Shown in pieces: positions 40,962 to 58,163 of a stretch of 64,000 bases of DNA (position 1 is its first letter; each line of letters opens with the position of its first letter). Source of the DNA: a virus (Duplodnaviria > Caudoviricetes); IMG/VR virus record IMGVR_UViG_3300048854_000081, positions 160,001-224,000 of that record; one strand, 5' to 3'. Both the position numbers and the translations under genes were made by a program. The notes beneath the pieces are model-generated. The model searched no databases. It saw only the letters and a program-made list of their open reading frames with translations, and had not been told where the DNA came from.

Positions 40962-41396
40962 ATGTCGGAAGAAATAGTCCGAAGATCAAAGCAGATCATC
41001 GTTATACGTAAAGATTTAAAGATGCGTAGAGGTAAGGAAGTTGCTCAAGGATCGCATGCCAGTATGGGTGCTCTTCTTAATAAGATGAGCAGATGCATCC
41101 ATGTAGTACCGAAGTCAGAAGAATATGGTGTCGCAAGGTGCTTGAATTTCATGAGCACTTCTGCTATGTTCGACTGGATCGAGAATTCATTTACCAAAAT
41201 CTGTGTGTACGTGAACTCTGAACAAGAGTTGGTCGATTTACATTTTGCAGCGGTGCAAGCATCGCTTCCTAACTGTTTGATCACGGATAGTGGTGCTACC
41301 GAATTCCATGGTGTTCCAACTAAGACGGCTCTAGCCATAGGACCAGCTTGGGATGATGAGCTTAAACCGTTAACCGGTCATCTACCTCTACTGTAA
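40962..41396 (+). CDS. pth2: Peptidyl-tRNA hydrolase, PTH2 family
   Basis: KQIIVIRKDLKMRRGKEVAQGSHA, ITDSGATEF, TALAIGP, TGHLPLL. Confidence 0.92.
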   Translation: MSEEIVRRSKQIIVIRKDLKMRRGKEVAQGSHASMGALLNKMSRCIHVVPKSEEYGVARCLNFMSTSAMFDWIENSFTKICVYVNSEQELVDLHFAAVQASLPNCLITDSGATEFHGVPTKTALAIGPAWDDELKPLTGHLPLL

Positions 41397-41422
41397 AAAT
41401 AACAATTTTTCTGCGACTACAC

Positions 41423-41470
41423 TAAATAGATTTACAAGGTACTTGACAGGAAGTCTTTTCATGTTAAAGT
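41423..41470 (+). promoter_or_regulatory. Late (TAAATA) and sigma70-like (TTGACA-16-TAAAGT) promoters for the tRNA leader
   Basis: TAAATA 41423-41428; TTGACA 41443-41448; TG-T-TAAAGT 41462-41470. Confidence 0.6.
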
Positions 41471-41508
41471 ACACCCACTAATCAACCCGAAGAACGAACC
41501 GAAATATC

Positions 41509-41607
41509 ATGAACATTTTTAATATTCACAACTATGATCATAATATCGACTATAAATTTAGTCGCGGTGCTTCTTTGACTGTGGAAATGGACAAGACTTG
41601 TATATAA
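41509..41607 (+). CDS. Putative attenuator leader peptide MNIFNIHNYDHNIDYKFSRGASLTVEMDKTCI
   Basis: 32-codon uORF between promoter and terminator; codons 2-17 use only N/I/F/H/Y/D/K. Confidence 0.75.
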   Translation: MNIFNIHNYDHNIDYKFSRGASLTVEMDKTCI

Positions 41608-41660
41608 GTTAACTCCAAGGAAACAAAGAAAAGAAGCCCGCCAAGAAAGCGGGCTTTTTT
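41564..41660 (+). terminator. Antiterminator/terminator pair (attenuator) upstream of tRNA cluster 1
   Basis: Terminator AAGCCCGC-CAAGAAA-GCGGGCTTTTTT (41634-41660); GCGG-T-GCTTCTTT (41564-41576) can pair with AAAGAAGCCCGC (41630-41641). Confidence 0.75.
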
Positions 41661-41674
41661 ATTGCAACAAATTT

Positions 41675-41759
41675 GGGTCGGTAGTCCCGTATGGTTCGGG
41701 GGGAGTCTGTAAAACTTCTGTCATTGACCAGCTAGGTTCGATTCCTAGTCGGCCCACCA
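41675..41759 (+). tRNA. tRNA-Tyr(GTA)
   Basis: Cloverleaf, loop CT-GTA-AA, long variable arm, ACCA. Confidence 0.85.
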
Positions 41760-41770
41760 AATTACAAGTG

Positions 41771-41799
41771 TTGACAAGCTAGTTTAAAACGTGTAGAAT
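41771..41799 (+). promoter_or_regulatory. Internal sigma70 promoter
   Basis: TTGACA-N17-TAGAAT. Confidence 0.65.
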
Positions 41800-41826
41800 G
41801 TCGAAAACAAGTTTGTCAAAAAATAC

Positions 41827-41902
41827 GGAAAGGTGACAGTGATGGTTCATGTGGCGGTCTGAAAAGCCGTAGATGTCGGTTCGATCCCGACCCTTTCCAC
41901 CA
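41827..41902 (+). tRNA. tRNA-Phe(GAA)
   Basis: GGAAAGG/CCTTTCC acceptor, CT-GAA-AA, ACCA. Confidence 0.88.
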
Positions 41903-41922
41903 AATAAAAAGAGAGCAAGATA

Positions 41923-42252
41923 ATGGACACGAATTTCAATAAAAACTTCCTTACGAATACAGATGATACAGGCCGCTTTGTGGTCACTTCTCAGCGTACA
42001 GGTCGTGTCTATTATGTTGAACCGATTGACGACCGTCAGGCAACTGATTGGACGAAGTGGGGTTCTATCGATCCTGCGACTGGTAAGCTAATGAATAAAC
42101 ATGCATTCCGTAAATATCATGGTGCAGTTTCAGAAGAAGAAAGTCTAGTCAAGTTGGAAAATGGTTTTAATAAAGTACACATGTTGGAACGCGGTACCAG
42201 TCCACATCACGCAATTGATGTCATTGATGCCCAATATCCAGATAAGGTGTAA
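41923..42252 (+). CDS. Hypothetical protein
   Basis: 109-aa ORF between tRNAs. Confidence 0.6.
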   Translation: MDTNFNKNFLTNTDDTGRFVVTSQRTGRVYYVEPIDDRQATDWTKWGSIDPATGKLMNKHAFRKYHGAVSEEESLVKLENGFNKVHMLERGTSPHHAIDVIDAQYPDKV

Positions 42253-42264
42253 TTTAAGAGTTAT

Positions 42265-42347
42265 GTAAGCGTGGGCGAGTGGTTATGCCAGCAGACTGTA
42301 AATCTGCCTCCTAGCGGAAACTGTAGGTTCGAATCCTACCGCTTACA
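42265..42347 (+). tRNA. tRNA-Tyr(GTA), CCA not encoded
   Basis: GTAAGCG/CGCTTAC acceptor, GCAGA-CTGTAAA-TCTGC. Confidence 0.85.
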
Positions 42348-42408
42348 CATTCGGTTCGAATAAGAATTCGAACCATAAATACATGAAGAATACAGAGTAA
42401 GACACTTC

Positions 42409-43035
42409 ATGTACTATACGATTTATAAGACTACCAACTTGAAAAATGGTAAGTATTATTTGGGTATGCATCAGACTAAAAATTTGGATGATGGATATAT
42501 CGGATCAGGAAAATTGCTCCGACGTGCGATTGAAAAATATGGATTTGATTCTTTCAAGAAAGAAATTCTTTTTGTATTTGACAATTCAGCCGACATGTAT
42601 ACTAAAGAACGAGAGTTAATAACGGAGGATGAAATTAAGAACCCTCTTTGTTACAATCTTGCTCCGGGTGGTTGGGGTGGGAATAGAATTATAGATAAAA
42701 CTCACAAGGTATGGTCAGTTGAACACTTTGTGATGATGCATGAAATTCTTAGTGAAAAGATCAAGAACGATCCACGTACTAAGGAAATTTTTAAGAATAA
42801 TGGGTTGAGGATGGCCGCAGTTATTAATAATGGCGACTACCACAATCCACGTATGACCGGTAAGACTCACAAGGATTCTACCAAAGAAAAAATGAGATTA
42901 TCAAAAGTCGGAAAAGTAAATGGTGTTGATAATCCAAGCTATGGTACGATGTGGATTACTGACGGTATCAATAATAGAAAGGTCAAGAAAGATTCTATTA
43001 TTCCCGAAGGCTGGCGTAAAGGAAGAAAGTTTTAA
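42409..43035 (+). mobile_element. Free-standing GIY-YIG (Seg-like) homing endonuclease
   Basis: TIYKTTNLKNGKYYLGMH..GYIGSG..AIEKYG; NUMOD3-like GKTHKDSTKEKMR; WITDG..PEGWRKGR. Confidence 0.88.
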
Positions 43036-43039
43036 TATG

Positions 43040-43068
43040 TTGACATGATCCTTTAAGAAAGATATTAT
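43040..43068 (+). promoter_or_regulatory. Internal sigma70 promoter
   Basis: TTGACA-N17-TATTAT. Confidence 0.6.
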
Positions 43069-43091
43069 GTCATCATAACGGAAACAGTATA

Positions 43092-43331
43092 ATGAATGAT
43101 GCACCACAGATTGTAACAGAAGAAGTAACACCAGAAGTTGTTGTTGAAACAAACGTAAAGCAGACTCTAAAGCGTAATTCATTGGGTCAGTTTTATCGTA
43201 AGCTTGGACGTGTAGTTGTTCCGCATGGTCAGACTTACAATGTTGGTAGCAATCGTACTAAGGCCGCGCTTTCGGTTATTAAGAAAGCTGCGAAGAGAGC
43301 ACGACGCGCTGCTAAGCGTTTGGGTCAGTAA
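43092..43331 (+). CDS. Hypothetical protein with basic C-terminus
   Basis: ORF track. Confidence 0.5.
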   Translation: MNDAPQIVTEEVTPEVVVETNVKQTLKRNSLGQFYRKLGRVVVPHGQTYNVGSNRTKAALSVIKKAAKRARRAAKRLGQ

Positions 43332-43334
43332 ATC

Positions 43335-43595
43335 ATGGCTCGCGTAAGAGTTGATGTGGAAGAGGTTCTAAAGCTAAGAGCTAGGATGGATGAAATAAAC
43401 AGCCACGCTCTCAAGAATGTAGACTTCTACCACAAAGGTAAGAAGGTAAAAATTTCAGCCGAAGATATTAACGACTGGAAATATACAGGCTTATCGACAA
43501 TGTTTTTCGTCGAGACCGTGATTAAGGATGAGTACTTGCTAGGATTGACCGTAATCAGAGACGAATGCGGTAATCCGATAGCAGTACAAGGGTAA
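43335..43595 (+). CDS. Hypothetical protein
   Basis: ORF track. Confidence 0.5.
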   Translation: MARVRVDVEEVLKLRARMDEINSHALKNVDFYHKGKKVKISAEDINDWKYTGLSTMFFVETVIKDEYLLGLTVIRDECGNPIAVQG

Positions 43596-43597
43596 AT

Positions 43598-43673
43598 GGT
43601 TCTGTAGCTCAGTTGGTAGAGCAATCGACCGATAATCGATATGTCGCAGGTTCGAATCCTGCCGGAACCACCA
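43598..43673 (+). tRNA. tRNA-Ile(GAT)
   Basis: ATCGA-CCGATAA-TCGAT anticodon arm, ACCA. Confidence 0.88.
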
Positions 43674-43694
43674 GTTTTTGTTTGGTAAAAGCGA

Positions 43695-43760
43695 GTGATG
43701 ATAGTATAATGATAGTACTCCACATGGCTGGGCAGCGTGGGTTTGATTCCCACCATCATG
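43695..43760 (+). pseudogene. Degenerate tRNA
   Basis: D-arm-like AGTATAATGATAGTAC and T-arm GTGGG-TTTGATT-CCCAC; broken anticodon arm; no CCA. Confidence 0.5.
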
Positions 43761-43802
43761 AGCGCTAGGTAGTGTACATACATAGCACCAAACAAGTTTT
43801 AT

Positions 43803-43877
43803 GGAGCGTGAAGCATCTGGTGAGGCTGGCACACTGTCTATGTGCTGAGACGGGTTCGATCCCCGTACGTTCCGCCA
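43803..43877 (+). tRNA. tRNA-Asp(GTC)
   Basis: GCACA-CTGTCTA-TGTGC, GCCA. Confidence 0.85.
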
Positions 43878-43884
43878 GTTTTAC

Positions 43885-43958
43885 AGTGGTGTCGTATAAA
43901 GGTATTATGTCGGTCTGTCTAACCGAAGAAGCGGGATCGTTACCCGTCATCACTGCCA
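43885..43958 (+). tRNA. tRNA-Asp(GTC)
   Basis: TCGGT-CTGTCTA-ACCGA, GCCA. Confidence 0.82.
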
Positions 43959-43968
43959 GTTTTAAAAT

Positions 43969-44063
43969 GGGCAAGGTACCCCGTATGGAATCGGGGATTT
44001 AGCTGAAAAGCTAAAATACTGCAAACTCAACAATTGTAGGTTCGAATCCTATCTTGCCCACCA
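43969..44063 (+). tRNA. Atypical class-II-like tRNA with 8-nt anticodon loop CTGAAAAG (Phe-like GAA)
   Basis: GGGCAAG/CTTGCCC acceptor, canonical T arm, ACCA; TTTAG-CTGAAAAG-CTAAA. Confidence 0.6.
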
Positions 44064-44200
44064 TTTGTACTCGCTACTATTTCATGCAAATGATCTTCTG
44101 TAGTGCCAAATCCTAGAGGTCTGGACCCAATGTCATTTTCTTAGTTACTAAGATATTAGGTGAAAACTAAACTGAGCGCACCACAGCGAGAAGTGGACCA
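44061..44200 (+). ncRNA. Candidate ~140-nt stable RNA ending in ACCA
   Basis: 5' CCATTT..CTCGCT pairs with 3' AGCGAG-AAGTGG, followed by ACCA. Confidence 0.45.
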
Positions 44201-44205
44201 GTTTT

Positions 44206-44281
44206 GGACAGTTAGCGCTCTGGTGATTGCACGGGTCTGTTAAACCCGGTTAGGTGGGTCCGATTCCCACACTGTCCGCCA
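44206..44281 (+). tRNA. tRNA-Asn(GTT)
   Basis: CGGGT-CTGTTAA-ACCCG, GCCA. Confidence 0.85.
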
Positions 44282-44335
44282 TTCATAGTTAGCTGATAGG
44301 TATAAATACATGGGTAACCGTGAATTTATCAGCTA

Positions 44336-44974
44336 ATGAAAATAGAAGATGTAGATTTAGAAACACTGAAAAGAGTTGTATCAGAAAATAAATCCAAAAG
44401 GCAAGTCTTACTTTATTTTGGGATTTCTAGTAAGAATGGAAATCAGAACGCTAAACTAGATCGAATTATTAAAGATAATAATATAGAGTCATCCCATTTC
44501 TCTAGAGATAAAGATTTTTCTATAATAGATAGTATTATTAGTACATGTGTATCTTATAAAGATATTGGTGTAAGAATGGGCATAGCACATGATGATAAAT
44601 CCATGCATGCCAGTTATTATACTAAGATCAGAAATTATATAGAATCTAACAATTTAGATATTTCACATTTTAATGATGGTGGTAGATATCATAATGCCGG
44701 AATACGATATTCATTAGAAAATATATTTGTTGAAAAATCTGAAGTGTCTAAACAAACACTAAAGAAAAGATATATAAAATATAGAATTGAAAATGATATA
44801 CAGGTAAGTTGTTGTGACCGATGTAGGATAAGCGAATGGATGGGTGATCCTCTAAGTTTGCAGTTAGATCATATCAATGGTACAAATGATGATAATAGGA
44901 TTGACAATCTCAGATTGATATGTCCTAATTGTCATTCACAGACAGAAACGTTTGCTGGTAAAAATAGAAATTAA
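44336..44974 (+). mobile_element. Free-standing HNH homing endonuclease
   Basis: CDRC..LQLDHINGTNDDNRIDNLRLICPNCHSQT; AT-rich relative to flanks. Confidence 0.88.
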
Positions 44975-44984
44975 AGTTTAATGT

Positions 44985-45113
44985 TCTTCAGTAGCATAGT
45001 GGCCTAATGCATCGGACTGTGGATCAAGACGTAAAAGCGTCCAAGGCTAGTGCAAGTCTAGTAGATCAAAGATAATCCGGGGATCGTGAGTTCGACTCTC
45101 ACCTGAAGAGCCA
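44985..45113 (+). tRNA. tRNA with a 52-nt insertion in the anticodon loop, most likely tRNA-Asn(GTT)
   Basis: TCTTCAG/CTGAAGA acceptor + G73 CCA; anticodon stem TCGGA/TCCGG separated by 59 nt. Confidence 0.7.
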
Positions 45114-45148
45114 GATTTAGTAAGACCAAAGTATGTAGAGTACTTTGG

Positions 45149-45226
45149 GGTGTCGGTGATGGAATTGGTAGACATGACGCACTGTGAATGCGTATTTTGC
45201 GGGATCGTACCCCGTCTGGCACCCCA
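45149..45226 (+). tRNA. tRNA-His(GTG)
   Basis: G-1:C73, ACGCA-CTGTGAA-TGCGT, CCA. Confidence 0.85.
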
Positions 45227-45244
45227 AAGTACTTTAGGAATAAT

Positions 45245-45364
45245 ATGAATATTAAAATGATTTGGAATAAGACACTTGGTGTTATGAGTGATTTATTCGA
45301 TACGGTATTCACAGCAATCGATGCCATAGCTTCACTTTTTGATGGTATTGACATCGACGATTAA
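45245..45364 (+). CDS. Small 39-aa amphipathic peptide
   Basis: AGGA SD; MNIKMIWNKTLGVMSDLFDTVFTAIDAIASLFDGIDIDD fills the gap between tRNAs. Confidence 0.45.
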   Translation: MNIKMIWNKTLGVMSDLFDTVFTAIDAIASLFDGIDIDD

Positions 45365-45368
45365 ATAC

Positions 45369-45443
45369 GGGATTATAGCTCAAAGGCAGAGCAAGTGGCT
45401 TTTAACCACGAGGTTGAGATTTCGAAATTCTCTAGTCCCACCA
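45369..45443 (+). tRNA. tRNA-Lys(TTT)
   Basis: GTGG-CTTTTAA-CCAC, ACCA. Confidence 0.85.
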
Positions 45444-45449
45444 TTTTAC

Positions 45450-45525
45450 GGAACGGTAGCTTAACTGGTAAAGTCGCTGACTCTTAATCAGCTTGATGTG
45501 AGTTCGACTCTCACTCGTTCCACCA
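45450..45525 (+). tRNA. tRNA-Lys(CTT)
   Basis: GCTGA-CTCTTAA-TCAGC, ACCA. Confidence 0.88.
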
Positions 45526-45530
45526 GACAT

Positions 45531-45555
45531 AAAAGCACCCTCAGGGTGCTTTTTT
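45531..45555 (+). terminator. Terminator closing tRNA cluster 1
   Basis: AAAAGCACCC-TCA-GGGTGCTTTTTT. Confidence 0.85.
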
Positions 45556-45583
45556 CGTATCCTCACTCACTAAAAAGAATACC

Positions 45584-46408
45584 ATGCATTGGATTCTCCA
45601 AAATAATCTCTTCAATGAAGCTGCCTACGCCACTCTTCTTGAGACGCTAGAGCGGTTCTCCATTCCATACTCTATCCACAAGGTTGTCCCCTTCGTAGGT
45701 GAGCTTGTCCCTGAGCCTACCATCGATCATAAGAATGTGATCTGTATGGGTTCCTACTCCCTCCGTCATGCTGCCAAGAAAGCTGGCTGGAATCCCGGTG
45801 TCTTTGACCTTGAGCCTTTCAACTTTCAGGTCCAACTTGAGCACTGGGGTGACCACATGCTCAATGCTGATGCCATTGTTTGTAAGTTTAAGGACGTTGA
45901 CTTTGAGGGTGAACGCTTCATCCGTCCTATCGAAGACAGTAAGGTATTTGCTGGAAACGTCTTTGACCGTCTATACTTCAAGGACTGGCAACACAAAGTT
46001 TGTGATCTAGAGGAAGACTATGGTAATTCGCTTACCAAGGACACTCTGGTTCAGGTCTGTCCACTAAAGCAAATTTATGCCGAGTACCGATTCTGGATTG
46101 TCAATCAGAAGATCGTTTCTGCATCACTCTACAAACGTGGTGATAATGTAATATATTCTTCGGACGTTGATCAGCGGTTCCATAATTATGTGAATCAGAT
46201 TTTACGTACCAAGAATCGAGTAACAGATATCACGTTGAGTGTAGAGAACAAAGGGTGGGCACCACATGATGCGTTTGTCATCGATGTGGCTGATACCGAC
46301 CAAGGATTGAAGGTAGTTGAAATTAACACTTTGAATTCCAGTGGATTCTATGCTTGTAACCTAACCGATTTGGTTTTAACTCTTGAAAGAGAATTTAATA
46401 ATGATTAA
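45584..46408 (+). CDS. ATP-grasp domain protein (R2K-like)
   Basis: FIRPIEDSKVFAG, EYRFWIV, FVIDVA..KVVEINTLNSSGFY. Confidence 0.8.
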   Translation: MHWILQNNLFNEAAYATLLETLERFSIPYSIHKVVPFVGELVPEPTIDHKNVICMGSYSLRHAAKKAGWNPGVFDLEPFNFQVQLEHWGDHMLNADAIVCKFKDVDFEGERFIRPIEDSKVFAGNVFDRLYFKDWQHKVCDLEEDYGNSLTKDTLVQVCPLKQIYAEYRFWIVNQKIVSASLYKRGDNVIYSSDVDQRFHNYVNQILRTKNRVTDITLSVENKGWAPHDAFVIDVADTDQGLKVVEINTLNSSGFYACNLTDLVLTLEREFNND

Positions 46409-57380: not shown

Positions 57381-58163
57381 ATGACTACTATTGATCAGGG
57401 TGAACTACTTGCCCATTACGAAAACGTTCTAGCTCGTTTTGACAACGTTCTTGCTGAACATTTTTTCGACTATAAAGAATACAAGAAGGCTGGATTCGCC
57501 CTGACATTTCAGACCACTATCAAGCAGTTGAGCGATGTTTTGATGTTCGATGAACTCGATGTTGTTGAACTGATTGAAGTCCTTGAAAACGATTTTGATA
57601 TTAATATTCCTGATGGTGTGTTCGAATCATGGAATATTGCTTTGGACCTTGCCCGTTACATTGGTGATGCCACTTTTGAAGGTGAGCCTGAACTACTGGA
57701 TACGGTCGATGCCACGGATGACGGTATTGATCCAGATACCATCCTTGGTAATCTTCTACTTCCTTCGGTTGAAGAGCATGGTCGCTTCATTGAAATTGCT
57801 GGCGTCACTGTTACTGAAGCCAGAGAATTGGTTAATGATTTTGCCGATAAGGTTGCTTCCCGTCGCAAGACCAAGCTTTACAAGGGTCTTACCGATGCTG
57901 ATTCGATGGATTTCTTCTACAACTTCATCGATGCCAGCAAGACCAATGCGGATTTCGATCACAAGCTGACGGTTGAACTATTCGCACTGTCCGAGTCGCA
58001 CGTCCCAACCTATCGTGGCCTACGTGCTTTCTACATCAATCCGAAGGTCATCGGTGTCGGTACTACCGTTATCTTTAACAAGAATTGGGCAACGCTCAAC
58101 TTCAGTGAAAACGGTATCGGAGAACGCTTGGCTGAGCTACAAGCAGAATACGAAAACGCGTAA
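57381..58163 (+). CDS. Acidic protein with an acyl-carrier-protein-like domain lacking the Ser attachment site
   Basis: LMFDELDVVELIEVLENDFDINIPD versus ACP consensus LGxDSLDxVELxxxLExxFxIxIPD. Confidence 0.55.
   Translation: MTTIDQGELLAHYENVLARFDNVLAEHFFDYKEYKKAGFALTFQTTIKQLSDVLMFDELDVVELIEVLENDFDINIPDGVFESWNIALDLARYIGDATFEGEPELLDTVDATDDGIDPDTILGNLLLPSVEEHGRFIEIAGVTVTEARELVNDFADKVASRRKTKLYKGLTDADSMDFFYNFIDASKTNADFDHKLTVELFALSESHVPTYRGLRAFYINPKVIGVGTTVIFNKNWATLNFSENGIGERLAELQAEYENA

Follow-up and report, generated by a model that had tools for sequence, protein, structure and literature searches.

The 64,000-nucleotide stretch analyzed here (henceforth the window) spans bases 160001-224000 of the 350,036-bp uncultured virus record IMGVR_UViG_3300048854_000081 (Caudoviricetes; G+C 42.5%) and contains a plus-strand tRNA operon (41675-45525), which is preceded by a leader with promoters, a 32-codon open reading frame (ORF), and an intrinsic terminator. 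We propose, with a probability of roughly 0.7, that this leader is a ribosome-mediated, i.e., leader-peptide, transcription attenuator that gates the tRNA operon by sensing the decoding speed of seven kinds of codons. Because three diverged relatives have kept the module, slow decoding of the matching codons is probably what prompts the phage to make these tRNAs; the translation of the ORF, the stalling of ribosomes in it, the helix that wins in each state, and the physiological trigger are components of this proposal that we infer. The promoter, the ORF, the leader terminator, and a second terminator closing the operon all lie where an earlier interpretation of the bare nucleotide sequence (the sequence-only reading) had placed them.

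The leader ORF (plus strand, 41509-41607; ATG at 41509, TAA at 41605-41607) comprises 32 codons and a stop and has homologs in the three relatives. Its codons 2-17 (plus strand, 41512-41559), here termed the sensing stretch, specify solely Asn, Ile, Phe, His, Tyr, Asp, and Lys, with all seven being represented, and all 16 are read by anticodons of the downstream array. When the cognate set is defined as the 14 codons read by these anticodons (NAY, AAR, AUY, and UUY), no other run in the genome (350,036 bp, six frames) is as long as this one of 16, the next ones measuring 13, 12, 11, and 11 codons, and the genome-wide counts of such runs drop about threefold with every extra codon. Read in its two alternative frames, this 48-nt stretch has 4/16 and 5/16 codons in the set, and among 200,000 mononucleotide shuffles of these 48 nt, which keep the exact base composition, none reaches 16/16 and five reach 15; hence, the codon match is frame-specific and A+T richness is not the explanation for it. 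The sequence-only reading had drawn attention to this restriction of codons 2-17 to the amino acids of the downstream tRNAs and to the lack of any further specificity in the array, and both statements hold: ARAGORN calls two tRNA-Tyr, one Phe, one Ile, two Asp, one Asn, one His, and two Lys genes in the operon, and two additional odd elements (see below), under either reading of them, add no specificity beyond the seven. The sensing stretch also includes a 10-bp palindrome centered on GATC, for which we estimate about an even chance of occurrence at this composition.

The second line of evidence is a set of competing helices, all on the plus strand. The leader terminator (41630-41660) has a GC stem formed by 41634-41641 and 41649-41656, which is extended by an A-tract and a U-tract, and lies 15 nt before the tRNA-Tyr gene at 41675; our own hairpin scan reports it on the plus strand, and another terminator scan gives the minus strand only, its stem extension absorbing the T-run. 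The 5' arm of this terminator (segment 3, 41630-41641) pairs with the 3' arm and U-tract (segment 4, 41649-41660) in a duplex of -18.8 kcal/mol (3:4), and doubles as the 3' strand of a putative antiterminator, the 5' strand of which (segment 2, 41564-41577) covers leader codons 19-23. This 2:3 duplex, in which 41564-41576 and 41630-41641 form the 12 bp that had been claimed from the sequence, with one bulged T, has an energy of -17.7 kcal/mol, matched by none of 2000 dinucleotide shuffles of the upstream RNA (mean -6.6, standard deviation 1.8), and no other terminator-like hairpin of the genome (196 register-redundant entries) has an upstream complement as strong as that of the leader terminator. 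Segment 2 can also pair with a purine-rich stretch of the 5' untranslated region (UTR), namely segment 1 (41488-41501), a candidate anti-antiterminator that is part of the minimum-free-energy fold (1:2 duplex, -11.5 kcal/mol; p=0.003 versus shuffles). Just ahead of segment 2, the folds present a further conserved hairpin (hairpin P, 41547-41564) with a 6-7 bp stem and a 6-nt loop, which, judging only from its spacing, is possibly an RNA polymerase pause hairpin. The leader as a whole folds with z = -4.8. Folding also recovers the mutually exclusive structures that had been anticipated for this region: the free full-length RNA adopts the 1:2 helix and the terminator in three of the four available versions of the leader, including that of the window, and the RNA ending at segment 3 adopts the 2:3 fold in all four.

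The versions outside the window come from diverged phages. A phmmer search with the 32-residue peptide against 1.8 billion representative proteins retrieved a 43-residue metagenome protein, the last 30 residues of which are homologous to the peptide; the other matches were repeats within long proteins, and no homolog was found outside the tRNA-linked copies. From the contigs of that protein, and from a scan with a back-translated pattern for the core NYDHNIDYKF, we obtained three further distinct versions, viz., L062 (identical to L063), L064 (identical to L066 and L067), and L065 (a 340-kb virus record), with homologous leader ORFs at L062:5755-5847, L067:5845-5940, and L065:1146-1235. Additional pattern scans (segment 2 followed by segment 3, or a shorter back-translated peptide) returned only these known relatives and chance matches inside genes. 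The identity of the flanking proteins to their counterparts in the window is 58-63%, indicating that the phages are well diverged. All four versions nevertheless display the same order of a TAAATAG motif, a TTGACA promoter, a leader ORF whose core encodes NYDHNIDYKF, a terminator, and finally tRNA genes, and the first tRNA block in each has the same seven specificities. The search for related phages with an upstream ORF and a terminator before their tRNA arrays, which the sequence-only reading had suggested, has thus yielded three such cases. The array of the L067/L064 type consists of just seven tRNAs, one per specificity (Tyr, His, Asp, Phe, Lys, Asn, and Ile), followed by a terminator (L067:7188-7230) and then the same ATP-grasp gene as in the window, and it lacks a strong internal promoter-like site, none between its first six tRNAs being better than 9/12. 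L062 has 14 tRNAs of the seven kinds up to the end of the contig, one of which is irregular and without a readable anticodon, and the array of L065 opens with Tyr, His, Asp, Phe, Lys, Lys, and an insertion-bearing tRNA. In the three relatives 15/16, 16/17, and 15/16 of the sensing codons are in the set.

Among the four versions, the pairwise identity is 28-57% in the 5' UTR, 81-96% from the start codon to segment 2, 38-68% in the peptide tail and spacer, and 74-93% from segment 3 to the U-tract. The ATGAAC start and the segment 2 core (GUGCUUCUUUG) are invariant. At the variable codons 3-8, 18/21 residues belong to the set as against 9/29 in the peptide tail (Fisher p=1.6e-4, uncorrected for shared ancestry), and the replacements at these codons are mostly exchanges within the set. 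The sole indel in the sensing part, of 3 nt, leaves the reading frame intact, and the distance from the stop codon to segment 3 is 22-27 nt throughout, despite the variable tail. On the side of the RNA, the closing pair of hairpin P is C-G in the window and U-A in the three relatives, i.e., a compensatory change, and one pair of the terminator stem appears as C-G, U.G, or U-A; 99% of the cells are paired versus 35-49% with slid partners. The 2:3 antiterminator is 97% paired over the four versions and almost invariant, and is therefore conserved rather than covarying. A partner of segment 2 is kept in each of the diverged 5' UTRs (p 0.003-0.02; 0.006-0.02 in the three relatives). Coming from four related sequences, these counts of change are suggestive rather than proof.

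The leader has its own promoters. A sigma-70-type promoter (plus strand, 41443-41470; TTGACA-16 nt-TAAAGT with a TG extension, 10/12 matches) has its -35 and extended -10 elements kept in all four versions and would start transcription near 41477, about 32 nt ahead of the leader ORF. Upstream of it, a motif scan found a CTAAATAG motif (plus strand, 41415-41422), a candidate phage-specific (T4-late-like) promoter element, which is likewise invariant across the four versions. Genome-wide, the pattern [ACT]TAAATAG[AT]T has 17 plus-strand copies (e.g., at window coordinates 52944, 65731, and 70107): seven sit 14-24 nt ahead of the first tRNA of a cluster, others are ahead of genes, and one copy precedes the leader. 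The motif resembles the T4 late-promoter box and also occurs ahead of tRNAs in a 524-kb phage (G001; loci L052 and L053).

Other candidate signals overlapping the leader were considered and rejected. A plus-strand promoter-like site lies within the ORF (TGAACA-17-TATGAT), and the 3-nt insertion of the L064 type changes its spacer while preserving the reading frame, which favors the ORF over a promoter. A minus-strand promoter-like site (TTGACT-17-TATGAT) is present in the relatives, and the window has lost its -35 element exactly at the compensatory pair of hairpin P, which favors the RNA structure over such a promoter. A minus-strand pseudo-tRNA over 41478-41552, reported by ARAGORN under relaxed settings, is weak and AU-driven and was set aside.

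Taken together, these features would allow the following mechanism. Transcripts from the promoters at 41415-41470 would carry the 32-codon ORF, whose first 16 sense codons would call for the seven specificities encoded downstream, and three mutually exclusive helices (1:2, the 2:3 antiterminator, and the 3:4 terminator) would set the outcome at 41630-41660. In an untranslated leader, the 1:2 and 3:4 helices would form and transcription would stop. Under fast translation, the ribosome would cover segment 2 and reach the stop codon 22-27 nt before segment 3, so that no 2:3 helix would form and transcription would again stop. Upon slow decoding of the Asn, Ile, Phe, His, Tyr, Asp, or Lys codons, ribosomes would linger or queue on the early part of the leader, with segment 1 being occupied and segment 2 free; the 2:3 helix would then form first and RNA polymerase would read into the tRNA genes. 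As the new tRNAs would relieve the stall, the circuit would act as a negative feedback, adjusting the supply of tRNAs to what decoding requires.

Several observations weigh against this interpretation. First, the signals for translation are poor in the window: the Shine-Dalgarno (SD) pairing of its leader is just -1.0 kcal/mol against a median of -3.9 for the genes of the phage, in line with the earlier remark that a strong SD is lacking, is weaker than that of 84% of the long ORFs of the genome and than that of the median random ATG, and the start codon is located in a weak hairpin. The corresponding pairing is -4.3 kcal/mol in L062, which is usable, and -2.9 and -2.9 in the other two relatives. 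Second, the geometry is non-classical. The sequence-only reading had assigned to the leader the geometry of the trp, his, and ilv attenuators; the leader ORF, antiterminator, and terminator conform to it, whereas segment 1 is found ahead of the start codon, within the 5' UTR, the ORF does not end until after segment 2, its stop codon being 22-27 nt short of segment 3, and the folding model favors stalls at codons 1-4. In that model, an equilibrium folding with a 30-nt ribosome footprint held unpaired, the antiterminator is favored (0.65-0.76) solely with the A-site at codons 1-4; for codons 5-16, the 1:2 helix re-closes behind the ribosome, and a kinetic or queueing argument is therefore needed. 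Stalls at codons 5-16 could possibly act through queueing of ribosomes onto segment 1, through steric hindrance, or through kinetics. Third, codon 3 is Thr (ACA), which is outside the set, in three of the four versions, and the first tRNA block there lacks a tRNA-Thr. Fourth, the sole TAAATAG motif of the block precedes the leader, whereas in seven other clusters it directly precedes the first tRNA, and internal promoter-like sites at 41771 and 43040 could drive most of the array without any read-through of the leader terminator. Fifth, the covariation rests on two pairs, and 61/500 shuffles reach the observed level, so that it is not significant by itself; the four versions, moreover, share one ancestor and are not independent inventions. 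Lastly, no codon-matched leader was found at any of the tRNA blocks inspected in the 524-kb phage, such a leader is likewise absent from every other tRNA cluster start inspected in the present genome, and the adjacency of the Pth2 gene, which the sequence-only reading had linked to a theme of stalled-ribosome rescue, does not recur, there being no Pth2 homolog in the loci of the relatives (including about 5.7 kb upstream of the leader).

These points have to be set against what other explanations would require. The best surviving of these is that the leader is a conserved structured leader or small RNA of about 184 nt, extending from promoter to terminator, which functions purely as RNA in processing, in stability, or in trans, with the ORF being incidental and its in-set codons resulting from structure or composition. 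Such a function would agree with the strong fold (z = -4.8), with the conservation of the core even at synonymous sites, much of the core lying within conserved helices, and with the weak SD in the window; attenuator-derived RNAs can moreover work in trans, as the account of rnTrpL of Sinorhizobium indicates (PMC6614838). Nevertheless, we consider it unlikely: the in-set property is confined to one frame (16 codons versus 4 and 5) and persists in the unpaired, variable loop codons (18/21), the single indel keeps the frame, the ATG and the position of the stop are conserved, and a role of the RNA by itself does not predict that the leader set would equal the downstream tRNA set in all four phages.

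The identity of a ten-residue core in all four versions, the annotation of the ORF by a gene caller in a metagenome, and the presence of internal promoters could instead point to a functional micropeptide of 29-32 residues with its own promoter and terminator, the tRNAs being expressed by leaky read-through or from the internal promoters and the match in composition being a coincidence. This appears to us very unlikely, since the ends of the peptide are unconserved, its tail being free in both sequence and length, no homolog exists beyond the tRNA-linked copies, the 5' arm of the terminator pairs with the interior of the ORF far above chance, the L067 type has no strong promoter-like site (none above 9/12) between its first six tRNAs, and a 16-residue run in a seven-residue set beside the matching tRNAs has a very low probability of arising by chance, the longest run elsewhere being 13. 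Least probable of all is that the hairpin serves as an invariable, somewhat leaky terminator or insulator, ending transcription from upstream with a constant low read-through and making no regulatory use of the alternative helices: the terminator is indeed strong and bidirectional-looking, has a probability of about 1.0 in the free RNA at equilibrium, and is the only one available to the upstream plus-strand genes (Pth2 and those preceding it), but a conserved promoter lies between the upstream gene and the terminator, which would therefore chiefly meet transcripts begun 180 nt before, the complements for 1:2 and 2:3 are significant in every version, and the sensing stretch would be left unexplained.

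We therefore return to attenuation by a leader peptide, the closest known examples of which regulate amino-acid biosynthesis. The ilvGMEDA leader, which is also of 32 codons, senses Ile, Leu, and Val, and the thr leader senses Thr and Ile. The phage leader is like these in having a promoter-proximal short ORF rich in the regulatory codons of several amino acids, an intrinsic terminator upstream of the first gene under control, an antiterminator built on the terminator's 5' arm, and a further helix in competition with this antiterminator. It is unlike them in preceding tRNA genes rather than genes for biosynthetic enzymes, in having seven inputs rather than two or three, in the location of segment 1 in the 5' UTR rather than over the sensing codons, in the stop codon lying beyond segment 2, and in its weak SD. 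In Rfam, the Trp_leader model (RF00513) scores 32 bits, under its cut-off of 41, with the terminator hairpin alone aligning and the other pairs of the model broken, and we find no sequence homology; the matches to Trp_leader and Thr_leader reflect only the terminator and were discarded.

Two further systems couple transcription to the decoding machinery. The pheST attenuator of E. coli, with its pheM leader, has a single input, Phe, and controls a synthetase. As in the phage, the regulated product belongs to the machinery that decodes the sensed codon, which amounts to a supply-demand feedback on decoding; the differences lie in its being a bacterial system with one input and a synthetase as its product, as opposed to tRNA genes in a phage. 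In T-box riboswitches, read-through decided between a terminator and an antiterminator likewise responds to the state of a specific tRNA; however, a T-box recognizes uncharged tRNA by direct binding, with no part played by translation, and depends on a specifier loop and a T-box bulge, whereas here a translated ORF is the plausible sensor. No T-box model was among 48 permissive Rfam matches (E up to 10) on 41470-41675. Phage tRNA clusters such as that of T4 share with the present operon the interleaving of tRNA genes with GIY-YIG and HNH endonuclease ORFs and the promoters directly upstream, and the T4 tRNA region carries a seg homing endonuclease. We know of no description of a leader ORF with an attenuator in such clusters, and none was found in the literature searched. 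The descriptions of leader-peptide attenuation known to us concern operons of amino-acid biosynthesis, a small number of synthetase genes, and resistance genes; we know of none for tRNA genes, and we found no publication on such an attenuator before tRNA genes. The class of mechanism is hence already known, and its use on tRNA genes with seven inputs is, as far as could be found, new.

The operon itself has the order Tyr, Phe, Tyr, Ile, Asp, Asp, a tRNA-like element, Asn, an insertion-bearing tRNA, His, Lys, and Lys, and is closed by an intrinsic terminator read directly from the sequence (plus strand, 45531-45555; 9-bp stem, 3-nt loop, and T-run). Both internal sigma-70-type promoters noted previously were present in the promoter scan, one between the tRNA-Tyr and tRNA-Phe genes (plus strand, 41771-41799; 11/12 matches) and the second at 43040-43068 (plus strand). 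The tRNA genes are interleaved with five ORFs, among them a GIY-YIG-like ORF (42409-43035), which matches the SegE family slightly under the cut-off, and an HNH endonuclease ORF (44336-44974); the insertions in the relatives are different, which explains their rearranged arrays. The tRNA-like element (43969-44063) has a long variable arm and an encoded CCA, with a GAA within an irregular anticodon loop of 6 or 8 nt, and shows only a weak tRNA-Sec-like match in Rfam (28.6 bits). The insertion-bearing tRNA (44985-45113) is complete in its arms and encodes its CCA, but its anticodon loop is interrupted by an insert of about 52 nt; upon removal of 52 nt, the loop reads CUGUUAA, i.e., Asn GUU, and ARAGORN instead calls it a tRNA-His with a 33-nt intron. 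A homologous insertion-bearing tRNA occurs at the matching place in L065 (L065:2030-2155), indicating that the insertion is conserved.

The whole genome encodes 41 tRNAs for all 20 amino acids in about a dozen clusters. A megablast search of 41000-46000 against GenBank phages returned nothing but a tRNA match and no close relative, and the regions of a Brevundimonas phage and of XacN1 show no synteny with the locus. For the Pth2 protein of the window, no relative above 58% identity was found among 5.8 billion proteins; a second contig bearing the window's Pth2 is identical across 12.4 kb, and among 45 loci with Pth2 homologs, where Pth2 is located within or next to tRNA arrays, none has a leader ORF and terminator ahead of a tRNA. 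As a separate observation, a gene for a Pth2-type peptidyl-tRNA hydrolase often lies in or directly beside the tRNA array in large uncultured phages (loci L003, L010, L017, L020, and L023), which is a recurrent linkage independent of the leader. The 524-kb phage mentioned above has 61 tRNAs and a homolog (70% identity) of a 109-residue ORF embedded in the array of the window.

Two further loci in the same genome lie outside the window. Two adjoining minus-strand tRNAs with the anticodon CUA (G000:C1:26819-26975) are of the amber-suppressor type, which suggests that this phage has suppressor tRNAs or local read-through of TAG. A G+C-rich and ORF-poor stretch (G000:C1:57290-57615) is closed by a terminator at 57585, whose 5' arm is surpassed by only one other in the genome in the strength of its upstream complement (-15.8 kcal/mol); the stretch possibly represents a structured non-coding RNA, or else another switch.

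As to what the proposed attenuator might serve, one tentative and, on balance, doubtful extension is that, with its seven inputs, it senses how much decoding the infected cell can sustain: tRNA depletion through the anticodon nucleases of host defence, host shut-off, or the phage's own A/U-rich codon demand would stall ribosomes on the leader and so bring about the supply of replacement tRNAs, attenuation thereby having been recruited for counter-defence and tRNA homeostasis. The sensing of defence is suggested, as a possibility, solely by the identity of the tRNAs: those for Tyr, His, Asn, and Asp are targets of colicin E5, and tRNA-Lys is a target of PrrC and PARIS. The module is compact (about 180 nt) and its parts are clear and mutable, which makes the idea testable with reporters, and the four natural variants already reveal which parts are constrained. 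If the proposal is true, phages would regulate their own tRNA supply through a self-correcting loop that directly gauges the decoding speed of the matching codons, which would bear on why large phages carry tRNA arrays, on the timing of tRNA expression, and on a possible response to tRNA-targeting defences.

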